Shown here in pieces: positions 2,682 through 32,000 of a stretch of DNA of 32,000 nucleotides. Both the position numbers and the translations under genes were made by a program. The notes beneath the pieces are model-generated. The model did not search any database. It worked only from the letters and a program-made list of their open reading frames with translations, and was not told the DNA's origin. Positions within the stretch are counted from its first letter, which is position 1. Each line of letters begins with the position of its first letter. Origin of the DNA: Edaphobacter aggregans (GTDB lineage Bacteria; Acidobacteriota; Terriglobia; Terriglobales; Acidobacteriaceae); assembly GCF_003945235.1 (NCBI RefSeq), contig NZ_RSDW01000001.1, positions 4,200,001 through 4,232,000 of the forward strand, read 5' to 3'.

Positions 2682-2793
2682 TGTTTGATAGCCATAAGGG
2701 TGTGGGTTTACGCATAAGGTGAAAGTTGTACCCCATAAGGCGAAAGTTGAGGCCCCATAAGATGAAAGTCATTCATTTTATGGGGTTTAGATG
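2682..2793 (+). repeat. Tandem ~21-bp direct repeats (putative TnsB-binding sites) forming a Tn7-like transposon right end
   Basis: The core CATAAGGNGAAAGT recurs with 20-22 bp spacing. Copies: CATAAGGGTGTGGG at 2693, CATAAGGTGAAAGTTG at 2713, CATAAGGCGAAAGTTG at 2734, CATAAGATGAAAGTCA at 2756. One inverted partial copy, TTATGGGG, lies at 2778-2785. Two possible 5'-TGT termini: TGTTTGAT at 2682 or TGTGGGTT at 2701. The block starts 10-29 bp after the nrdJ stop and faces the tns genes on the same strand. Confidence 0.55.
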
Positions 2794-2829
2794 CAATATC
2801 TCGAACTCGATATTGTAAACCTCCATAAC

Positions 2830-3999
2830 CTACATAACTTCCACAACTGTCTTTCCTGCTGTTGCTTGCGAGCAATGAAGGTTTTCGGTATCGGCGAGCC
2901 GATCCTCCCCAACGTACATTGCAGAGAGAGTTTGAAGCCGGGTCAGCGTCTCCTTGTCCATAATTAGGCCATTCCCGGCCTGACTCAACCGCCGCGTCGG
3001 CAGACCCAACTTCCTCAGCCGATGTCCCACCTTTTCAGGGCTAAGTTTGGACGGCTCGCCCCGCGCTTCCACCAGACGGTTGATCTCGACCGCGATTTCC
3101 CGTGCGTAAAGTTGTTCGGTGCCTCCCGTGCTCAGGGCGAGTATCGCTTCGACGACCAAGGCTTCGGTTGTATTCCGCCGTTCTGAGATCTGCCGCCGAT
3201 CCCACGGGGCAAGGATTGCAACGAGTGCCGCCTGAAGGTCGGGCGAATCCACAATGCAGCTTCCGAGAGCCTTTGCGACGGCGCAGGTCTCCGGTGAGAC
3301 CCCAATGGGGTTGAACGCAAGCCGGCGTACCTGAGCCAGGTGACCTTCGCGATACTTGGCCAAGTTGCTGTTGAGATCCTCGACAGCTTGGTCAATCCCT
3401 ACGGGAGGAATTCGTTTCTCCGCATTCAGCGCGGGCGTCACGTCGATGTAGATGGCGTGCTGGATCCTTCTAATCGTGGGATCTTCACCGATGTAGACCG
3501 CCTTGGAGCTATGACACTGCAAGTAGGACCCTTGCTCCACGATCATGAATCCCCGGTTTGTCAGGTTTCCCAAGAGGGCTGCGGTCTGGTTGTTCAGATT
3601 GGGTTCAGAGATGAGGAGCGTATGGCGGGACACATCCTTGAGGTCCCCCCTGCGAAATCCAGCAAGGAGCAGTGATCCAAGGCAAAGGTCATGGAGGACG
3701 CGCAGAAGTTCGGTCGCCTCGTGGGCCGGGCCCGTGATCACCAGGCATGGAAGCACGATAAGGGCCTCCTGGAACCAAGTCGAGATCACCCAGAACGCGG
3801 CAATAGCGATGTCGGCGTTGGACAAGTGAGTCTGTGCCTTGATCGTGTGCTTGATGGTAGTGAGGAGCTCGAGGGCCTTGCTTGATGGCGGTGCCGGTGA
3901 AGACTCAGGCGTCGAAGTTGCGGCCTTATTGGTGCCGGACAAGGGCAACGTTGGGTCGGCTTCAGTCGCCGACGGGAGGTTTGCTTGTGACTCGTTCAT
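2830..3999 (-). CDS. Hypothetical protein, DUF3631-like layout with a degenerate Walker A
   Basis: 389-aa ORF with GAGAGG about 7 nt upstream of the ATG. The central block AIAAFWVISTWF..LPCLVITGPAHEATELLRVL..TLLISEPN..LLGNLTNRG parallels the DUF3631 layout (..ITSPxxGCGKT..TLLIDEAD..), but GPAHEAT replaces GxGKT. The C-terminal KLSPEKVGHRLRKLGLPTRRLSQAGNGLIMDKETLTRL resembles the DUF3631 C-terminal helix-turn-helix. The family call is from memory only. Confidence 0.5.
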   Translation of the reverse strand: MNESQANLPSATEADPTLPLSGTNKAATSTPESSPAPPSSKALELLTTIKHTIKAQTHLSNADIAIAAFWVISTWFQEALIVLPCLVITGPAHEATELLRVLHDLCLGSLLLAGFRRGDLKDVSRHTLLISEPNLNNQTAALLGNLTNRGFMIVEQGSYLQCHSSKAVYIGEDPTIRRIQHAIYIDVTPALNAEKRIPPVGIDQAVEDLNSNLAKYREGHLAQVRRLAFNPIGVSPETCAVAKALGSCIVDSPDLQAALVAILAPWDRRQISERRNTTEALVVEAILALSTGGTEQLYAREIAVEINRLVEARGEPSKLSPEKVGHRLRKLGLPTRRLSQAGNGLIMDKETLTRLQTLSAMYVGEDRLADTENLHCSQATAGKTVVEVM

Positions 4000-31419: not shown

Positions 31420-31428
31420 GGAGAGACA

Positions 31429-32000
31429 ATGGACGTTAATCAAACTCGATTCCAACTGGTATACGGTCAGACGGATTGGCTTCCGGTGGCGAGTGGCAGT
31501 TCACCGTCCGCTGAGCCGTTGTTTGATTGGAATGCCGGTGACGCCACTCTTAGCTTGCATCAGGACCTCTTCATTTTTCCTAGGCTCAGTGGACAAGTTG
31601 CTTTGGATGTTGCGAATCGCAGGGGATCCGGACGGGATCGCTATGGGAACTGGTACTGGATTGCGGAGAGTCAAACCGAACTGCGCTTTCTAAGCATGAA
31701 ACCTTCAAGCAGCGCGCAACACTTCTGGTCGAGCAGCGATGAAGTGCGCAGCTGTGTGTCAACTGGCGAGTTTGTCAGTACCGCAAGCCCACAGCCTCCC
31801 TTAGCGTTGGTTTTCTCCGGACTGGCTCCTACTTCCGACCATTATCTGGTGGTTGGTGTGATGAAGCCGAAGGGGCTGCTGGTTTTCGATTTGTACTCCG
31901 GTGGGCCGCCGGCTCATCTGCTATGGCCGGCAAGCGTGCCCTTTGAACCTTTTGACATGGCGCCTGCCGCCGACGGAGGCGTGTTTATCCTGGACCGCGC
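31429..32000 (+). CDS. Next baseplate/tail protein (possible Afp12/gp7-class), 3'-truncated by the window edge
   Basis: The open frame runs from ATG 31429 (MDVNQTRFQLVYGQTDW..RGSGRDRYGNWYWIAESQTELRFL..HYLVVGVMKPKGLLVFDL..GGVFILDR) to the end of the window without a stop. It is missing from the track because it has no stop codon. Its position after baseplate J fits the usual gene order. The family call is tentative. Confidence 0.55.
   Translation, partial: MDVNQTRFQLVYGQTDWLPVASGSSPSAEPLFDWNAGDATLSLHQDLFIFPRLSGQVALDVANRRGSGRDRYGNWYWIAESQTELRFLSMKPSSSAQHFWSSSDEVRSCVSTGEFVSTASPQPPLALVFSGLAPTSDHYLVVGVMKPKGLLVFDLYSGGPPAHLLWPASVPFEPFDMAPAADGGVFILDR

Follow-up and report, generated by a model that had tools for sequence, protein, structure and literature searches.

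Is the contractile injection system (CIS) operon of Edaphobacter aggregans cargo of the Tn7-like element that begins downstream of nrdJ? The question arises in a stretch of 32,000 nucleotides (contig NZ_RSDW01000001.1, positions 4,200,001 to 4,232,000; the window in what follows), whose edge at 32000 cuts the operon; the E. aggregans DNA analyzed reaches up to this edge. An earlier note on this sequence had proposed that the whole system is cargo. We found that the observation is real and that the interpretation is partly supported: with a chance somewhat better than even, the operon lies inside the element, i.e., is its cargo. We favor this reading because no end of the element was found between tniQ and the operon, the boundary past tniQ falls as it does in relatives, long cargo is normal in this family, and the block that holds the operon appears to be a movable module.

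The window is laid out as follows (comparison loci carry L numbers; L133, CAVVBT010000001.1, is the closest right-side relative of the element).

27..2672, plus strand: 3' part of nrdJ, class II ribonucleotide reductase (Pfam PF02867 Ribonuc_red_lgC 2.6e-127, plus TSCPD)
2673..2700, plus strand: host DNA separating the nrdJ stop from the element, 28 nt, the last 5 bp being AAGGG (2696-2700)
2701..2794, plus strand: right end of the Tn7-like element, with terminal TGTGGGTT and three TnsB-site-like repeats (match to the nhmmer right-end profile, E=1.1e-25)
2830..3999, minus strand: orfX, 389 aa, of no known family, with homologues in 49 element-family loci
4077..5331, no strand: variable stretch with small open reading frames (ORFs) at 4307-4711(+), 4450-4899(-) and 4911-5309(-), partly common to L133, L143 and L144 only
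5465..6796, plus strand: AAA+ ATPase, 443 aa (Pfam AAA 6.6e-21; weak IetA/IteA-like matches)
6914..7663, plus strand: tnsA, endonuclease subunit of the heteromeric transposase (Pfam Tn7_TnsA-like_N 4.2e-6; NCBIfam TnsA_like_Actin 5.5e-17; full-length against L141)
7665..9674, plus strand: tnsB, DDE transposase, 669 aa (Pfam Mu-transpos_C; colinear with the TnsB of L141, 92% identity)
9664..10683, plus strand: tnsC, TniB-type AAA+ regulator, 339 aa (Pfam TniB 3e-30; 95% identical over the full length to L141)
10680..12529, plus strand: tniQ/tnsD-type target selector, frame split near 11540 (Pfam TniQ 1e-18 on the first half)
12542..14176, no strand: 1.6-kb spacer with no convincing gene, 52% guanine plus cytosine (GC), unique to the E. 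aggregans window
14177..15547, plus strand: sigma-54-dependent activator (bacterial enhancer-binding protein, bEBP), 456 aa (Pfam Sigma54_activat 1e-64, AAA_lid_14, HTH_8)
15636..15668, plus strand: two copies of the motif GGGTCGA(T/A)T, candidate activator-binding sites, within intergenic sequence that is conserved across the four genomes
15831..15846, plus strand: candidate sigma-54-type promoter TGGAGAAGCAATTGCT (GG-N10-GC), 36 nt before the first ORF of the operon
15882..32000, plus strand: CIS operon, all on one strand, running past the window edge (Pfam matches)

The genes tnsA, tnsB, tnsC and tniQ stand in one orientation, as seen from Pfam and NCBIfam matches and from colinearity with relatives. 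The right end of the element had earlier been set at 2682 (TGTTTGAT). We place the terminus at TGTGGGTT, position 2701, because conservation with L001 (TnsB 77% identical, same insertion site) begins at TGTGGGTT and because 31 other right ends are found 23-35 nt after nrdJ. Among relatives the sequence 2673-2700 varies, and that from TGTGGGTT onwards is conserved. Contiguous repeats of 21-22 bp each follow, with the TnsB-site-like core CATAAGGnGAAAGTTG at 2713, 2734 and 2756 (2713-2771); these three matches compare with 0.18 expected by chance, and a motif scan detected no further copy on either strand of the window. The host flank TGTTTGATAGCCATAAGGG (2682-2700) itself looks like a degenerate element terminus (TGT…CCATAAGG), and the relatives are unrelated there; this likeness may be due to chance or may be a relic of an earlier insertion.

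The ends of the whole element family describe the attachment site. Scans with TGTGGGTTNNNNCATAAGNNGAAAG yielded 93 loci from metagenomes and 41 from genomes, mostly of Acidobacteriaceae. The right-type ends, which have three contiguous sites, numbered 70 after removal of redundancy, and 31 of these were placed 23-35 nt after the end of nrdJ; the left-type ends, which have a first site, a gap and then further sites, numbered 26, and none was found after nrdJ. Judging by these ends, the family inserts in a site- and orientation-specific way, with the 3' end of nrdJ as the attachment site. The distance from the nrdJ stop to the element is 28 nt here and 25-29 nt as read off the flanks of individual relatives, and AAGGG (2696-2700) is the expected right-hand copy of a 5-bp target-site duplication. 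Several loci have a reversed right end, 5 bp and a left end in a row, i.e., the 5-bp spacing expected of Tn7-type duplications. We observed such junctions in L007, L011, L013, L019, L027, L035, L066, L067, L073, L081 and L098; evidently, these are tandem family members that share a 5-bp duplication at one site, and target immunity is not absolute. A second terminus of the TGTGGGTTTgCGCATAAGGCTGAAGTCGA type stands a few sites inside the right ends of L053, L062, L017, L072, L074 and L088, as if two related elements were nested or had formed a composite end.

The other end of the element was sought with profiles specific to this family. A left-type end is of the form …CTTTCnnCTTATGnnnnnACCCACA and can be recognized by TGTGGGTnnnnnCATAAGnnGAAAG in reverse complement with spaced sites after it, and nhmmer profiles were built from 26 left-type and about 70 right-type ends. 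In the window these profiles matched 2701-2794 and nothing else even at E=0.1, so that 2795-32000 was clear. No inverted copies of the repeat were present in the window with up to 4 mismatches, and neither TGTGGGTT nor ACA joined to the expected duplication, sought as signs of a hidden left end, gave a positive result in the window. The earlier statement that no left end lies between tniQ/tnsD (which ends at 12529) and the window edge was thus confirmed, and the same holds for the interval 12530-14176 taken separately.

This last interval bears on one alternative, namely that the CIS genes are ancestral chromosomal DNA beside nrdJ and that a compact element, reaching from the right end to tniQ, was inserted between the two. 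Such an insertion needs a left end in 12530-14176, where none was found. Among 41 nrdJ-containing loci of relatives, CIS genes were found in 0, and the same module stands beside unrelated genes in four other sequences. The GC content of the CIS genes, which equals the genome average (PMC11354219), is what one would expect of ancestral DNA; still, this explanation was already disfavored, and we consider it very improbable. The same CIS operon at an nrdJ locus lacking tns genes, which the earlier note had named as a test, was not found, but the module does occur without adjacent tns genes at other loci.

For the reading in which the operon is cargo, the left end would have to lie far from tniQ. 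Motif and profile searches detected no left end in the element relatives L001, L002, L141, L143 and L145 or in the relatives of the CIS. In the three loci with enough sequence (L001, L002 and L145), the first 7.0-7.4 kb 3' of tniQ contained none, so that the left end appears to be more than 7 kb past tniQ wherever that much sequence is visible. In a published survey of Tn7-like elements, the median lengths were 14-29 kb and the maximum was 140 kb (PMC8649781); therefore, an element of more than 29 kb would be unremarkable.

The five element relatives just named have TnsB proteins 77-92% identical to that of E. aggregans. Similarity to the window ends in them as follows.

L141 (TnsB 92%; 90% nt identity over 5332-12541): ends 12 bp after the tniQ stop (12541); then 950 bp of unrelated DNA
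L143 (TnsB 86%): ends at window position 12520; then about 1 kb of unrelated DNA
L145 (TnsB 82%): ends at window position 12153, within tniQ; then MaoC, IclR-type regulator, GH127 and RuBisCO-like genes
L001 (TnsB 77%): ends at window position 12496; then an unknown gene, ACP synthase III and sulfotransferase genes
L002 (TnsB 83%): ends at window position 11989, the C-terminus of tniQ having diverged; then AbiE and other genes

We see that L141, L143 and L001 break off within about 35 bp of the tniQ stop, and that L145 and L002 do so earlier, in the C-terminal half of tniQ. Since five relatives diverge there and carry different genes, the cargo region of the family appears to start right after tniQ and to differ in every member. 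The spacer 12542-14176, which had no blastn or tblastx match in any fetched locus and has no end-like sequence, would then be the start of the cargo region in E. aggregans. Genes for GH127 enzymes occur both in the cargo of L145 and in the flank of the CIS relative L138; we rejected a link between the two, as these genes are only about 45% identical.

The same breaks bear on a second alternative, which we consider a serious explanation, if one with a less than even chance: the element is a truncated remnant whose left end, perhaps along with some of its cargo, was lost within 12542-14176 through deletion or recombination, and the bEBP-CIS block is a separate island that abuts it and was never mobilizable by it. 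Loss of the left end by deletion is plausible because tniQ is frameshifted, the spacer is gene-free (and unique to this window) and remnants of the family exist. For example, a left end stands alone in L093 (4527-5000), about 400 bp past nrdJ, with no right end or tns genes; we take it for a deletion remnant of an element at the nrdJ attachment site. On the other hand, the break coincides with the boundary between core and cargo (12 bp after the tniQ stop by comparison with L141, within about 35 bp of it with L143 and L001). This position repeats the pattern of intact elements with different cargo and is an unlikely spot for a random deletion. In addition, tnsA, tnsB, tnsC and the right end are intact, and large cargo is the rule in the family.

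The block behind the spacer was identified from its genes. The CIS operon contains the following ORFs, all on the plus strand.

15882-16184, plus strand: small ORF
16199-16792, plus strand: Pvc16-like cap
16841-17767, plus strand: ORF
17783-19843, plus strand: sheath
19881-20342, plus strand: tube
20352-23567, plus strand: second sheath-like protein, 1071 aa
23570-24046, plus strand: tube
24101-25003, plus strand: CIS tube/initiator
25245-26330, plus strand: gpD-like protein
26327-27046, plus strand: gpV-like spike
27054-28808, plus strand: ORF
28808-29200, plus strand: gp25
29206-31419, plus strand: baseplate J
31429 onwards, plus strand: Tail_P2_I-type (Afp12-like) protein, start only

Sheath, inner tube, gp25, gpJ, spike and cap are thus present in one cluster, as shown by Pfam matches and by sequence matches to PDB entries. 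All genes of the operon are colinear and intact in comparison with L138 (CAKYCM010000077.1), with 74-90% amino acid identity. The label "extracellular" that the earlier note had given to this CIS is an assumption. Among solved sheaths, 8bky and 8bl4 match best (E about 1e-102 to 1e-104), better than those of Afp, PVC, AlgoCIS and Anabaena. The second sheath-like protein is of unusual length, and only its C-terminus matches sheath domains; homologues with 75-78% identity were found on three contigs (L137, L138 and L142). A 48-nt stretch is shared, at 73% identity, by the start of this gene, coding for the N-terminus, and the first sheath gene (20583-20630 and 18020-18067). Relatives of baseplate J in IMG/VR were only 43-46% identical, nothing close to the sheath or to TnsB turned up among plasmids, and a protein search with the N-terminus of the Afp12-like protein returned short fragments only.

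The Acidobacteriaceae sequences L137 (Ga0669126_0000464), L138 and L142 have the same bEBP gene followed by the same genes in the same order, with 76-79% DNA identity over 14177-32000. Each has a different upstream neighbor, the three being a gene for a BACON/CHB_HEX protein, one for a GH127 enzyme and a trypsin/Mrr_N gene, and the 3.3-3.8 kb visible upstream in them contain no tns gene. Because the same block stands beside such different neighbors, we regard the bEBP-CIS block (14177-32000), from these comparisons, as a discrete module found in different contexts. In L146 (1-1334) the operon is truncated at its 5' end: the bEBP, the cap and a portion of the following gene are missing, and a GH116 gene on the opposite strand adjoins it, so that the left boundary of the module is rearranged in this relative too. 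L137, L138 and L142 have in common about 250 bp ahead of the bEBP; the window lacks these, and similarity to it starts at the ATG of the bEBP. In place of these, the window has unique sequence (13900-14177) right up to that ATG, and the bEBP may be driven here by a different promoter than in the relatives. Apparently, the event that placed the module next to the DNA behind tniQ also cost it the upstream region that it has elsewhere. A junction that cuts this region exactly at the ATG resembles a recombination scar and suits an island abutting a truncated element, as does the occurrence of the module elsewhere without tns genes.

The earlier claim that the system has its own sigma-54 regulator agrees with what we observed. 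The features of a sigma-54 regulon are present, i.e., a bEBP with a Sigma54_activat domain and a candidate -24/-12 promoter. The GG and GC of the promoter candidate TGGAGAAGCAATTGCT are conserved in L138 and L142, and the alignment of L137 stops after the GG. A strict search for TGGCAC-N5-TTGC, with up to 1 mismatch, found no match. About 170-200 nt upstream of the GG-N10-GC element, ahead of the operon, the pair of GGGTCGA(T/A)T copies is located, and these are candidate binding sites of the activator.

Several observations count against placing the operon inside the element. The first is that a left end with a target-site duplication was not observed within the window (to 32000). Then, tblastn with all proteins of the window detected no CIS genes in at least 140 fetched loci of the element family, and no locus with a left end holds CIS genes; nor did ORFs next to left ends have tblastn matches in the CIS loci. 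The match lists of TnsB and of the sheath share no contig except the E. aggregans chromosome, where TnsB and the second sheath-like protein each have a 100% identical counterpart, and the 0.8-3.8 kb visible upstream in the four CIS relatives (L137, L138, L142 and L146) contain no tns genes. The same tns genes together with the same operon, whose joint occurrence elsewhere the earlier note had suggested looking for, were accordingly not found in any of the at least 140 element loci and four CIS relatives. Besides, the element has decayed, as shown by the frameshift in tniQ and the gene-free spacer, and with a 1-nt deletion in tniQ this copy is probably immobile.

Base composition lends no support to a foreign origin either. 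The GC content is 65.1% in nrdJ, 55.4% in the tns core and 57.7% in the CIS genes, and the GC content at third codon positions (GC3) is 0.88, 0.62 and 0.65, respectively. The genome of E. aggregans has 56.9 mol% GC (PMC11354219, Table 2), and the nrdJ of L001 is likewise GC-rich (65.8%). Therefore, it is nrdJ and not the operon that is the GC outlier, the CIS genes being close to the genome average. The codon usage of the operon does differ from that of nrdJ (GC3 0.65 versus 0.88), as had been noted before, but this difference is uninformative on origin, and we rejected it as a sign of foreign DNA (57.7% against 56.9 mol%).

Weighing these points, we keep the reading in which the operon is cargo. 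Its case as first proposed stands in that no end precedes the operon and that the cargo of relatives starts after tniQ; it falls short in that the far end is out of sight and no co-occurrence was found. We find it slightly more credible than its negation that a whole sigma-54-regulated CIS (at least 18 kb) sits inside an nrdJ-targeting element, as a block acquired too recently to be seen in the sampled element relatives. The position of the left end, and hence the status of the operon as cargo, is what we infer here, along with the mechanism of acquisition.

The window would then show the right-hand 29 kb of a Tn7-like transposon set in a fixed orientation 28 nt downstream of nrdJ. The order in the element would be the right end, orfX, the variable stretch and AAA-tnsA-tnsB-tnsC-tniQ, with everything beyond tniQ as cargo, presumably a decayed spacer of 1.6 kb and then the module made of the activator, the -24/-12 promoter and the CIS operon. 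Recombination would have brought in this module as a block, with the junction exactly at the start codon of the activator. The left end would lie past the window, after the rest of the operon, i.e., the remainder of the Afp12-like protein gene and probably genes for the tape measure, ATPase, fibers and effectors. By analogy with Tn7, TniQ would recognize the 3' end of nrdJ and recruit TnsC and then TnsAB; TnsAB would excise everything from one end to the other and insert it, duplicating 5 bp at the target. With tniQ frameshifted, the element and the injection system are probably fixed in place unless helped in trans.

The frameshift was located by tblastn and DNA alignment. Residues 1-287 of TniQ are encoded in one frame and residues 287-615 in another, due to a 1-nt deletion near 11540; in the window, 11537-11549 reads GGGA-ATCC compared to GGGGGATTC in L141, which yields ORFs of 294 and 313 aa. 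In relatives TniQ is a single protein of 616 aa (L141 and L143) or 595 aa (L001). The split could mean a pseudogene or a sequencing error.

Two further genes deserve mention. The orfX gene lies just inside the right end and is transcribed outwards, and its homologues (36-81% identity) have the same position in the 49 end-motif loci. It had no Pfam, NCBIfam or PADLOC match, and an AF2 model made from the single sequence was unusable (pLDDT 34); orfX looks like a family-specific accessory gene. The ORFs in 4077-5331 had no family matches in Pfam, NCBIfam or PADLOC, and an Rfam scan of the window gave no matches. The AAA ATPase gene (5465-6796) directly precedes tnsA in a sub-clade made up of the window, L133, L141, L143, L144 and L145; L001, L002 and L075 lack it. 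None of the five loci that carry it shows CIS genes. We rejected this ATPase as the Afp15 of the injection system, given its conservation in CIS-free relatives of the element; it is part of the element.

Taken separately, the two systems are familiar: the element is an ordinary Tn7-like transposon, and the injection system is a typical CIS cluster. The catalogue of Benler et al. 2021 (PMC8649781) already has Tn7-like members from Acidobacteriaceae. With the published elements ours shares tnsA, tnsB, tnsC and a selector of the tniQ family, variable cargo after the selector, the terminal TGT, ends that are asymmetric in that sites are contiguous on the right and spaced on the left, insertion in one orientation at a fixed distance after a conserved gene and the 5-bp spacing at tandem junctions. 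The TnsB-site motif reported for Granulicella sp. S156, ARTWTCRSKTTATGYGTCC (PMC8649781), includes the same TTATG core when read as its reverse complement. Our element attaches at nrdJ, whereas Tn7 attaches at glmS. Unlike usual Tn7-like elements, this one has about 4 kb between the right end and tnsA (orfX, the variable ORFs and the AAA ATPase) and a frameshifted selector, and its left end was not seen in the window.

With the Afp and PVC systems the E. aggregans cluster has in common a sheath, a tube, a Pvc16-like cap, gp25, baseplate J, a gpV spike and a Tail_P2_I-type protein in one operon, and the C-terminal domains of its sheath match Afp2/3 and Pvc2/3. It differs in having two sheath genes (one for 1071 aa), a dedicated sigma-54 activator at the head of the cluster and 8bky/8bl4 as the best solved matches of its sheath, AlgoCIS (7adz) and Anabaena (7b5h) also having been compared. 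Genes for the ATPase, tape measure, fibers and effectors are absent from the window and are expected downstream of 32000.

A large injection machine as cargo of a Tn7-like element has a precedent, since VPaI-7 of Vibrio parahaemolyticus, a Tn7-like CRISPR-associated transposon (CAST; type I-F3a), carries the type III secretion system (T3SS) T3SS2 (PMC12150760). In both cases the element is Tn7-like, and here too the cargo would be a complete multi-gene apparatus for protein injection, tens of kb in size. However, both ends of VPaI-7 were identified and its targeting is CRISPR-guided, whereas in E. aggregans targeting is protein-directed (TniQ at nrdJ) and the boundaries are unproven; the machine is a T3SS in the former and a phage-tail-like contractile system in the latter.

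In the literature, we found neither a CIS described as carried by a Tn7-like element nor a link between E. aggregans and eCIS. If the operon is indeed cargo, it would be the first CIS that we found described in this role. The practical weight of such a case is limited, as it concerns one genome with a broken selector, and Tn7-like cargo of almost any kind, up to 140 kb, is already known. The earlier suggestion that the element serves as a dissemination route for these machines is not supported for this copy: no other sequence pairs these tns genes with this operon, and tniQ is frameshifted. Still, should the left end lie past the operon, a site-specific transposon would be able to capture a whole phage-tail-like injection machine along with its regulator, and contractile systems would join T3SS2 of VPaI-7 and other large machines whose transfer between genomes by Tn7-like elements is possible in principle. 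This would help to explain how the same CIS module came to stand in unrelated contexts within the Acidobacteriaceae.

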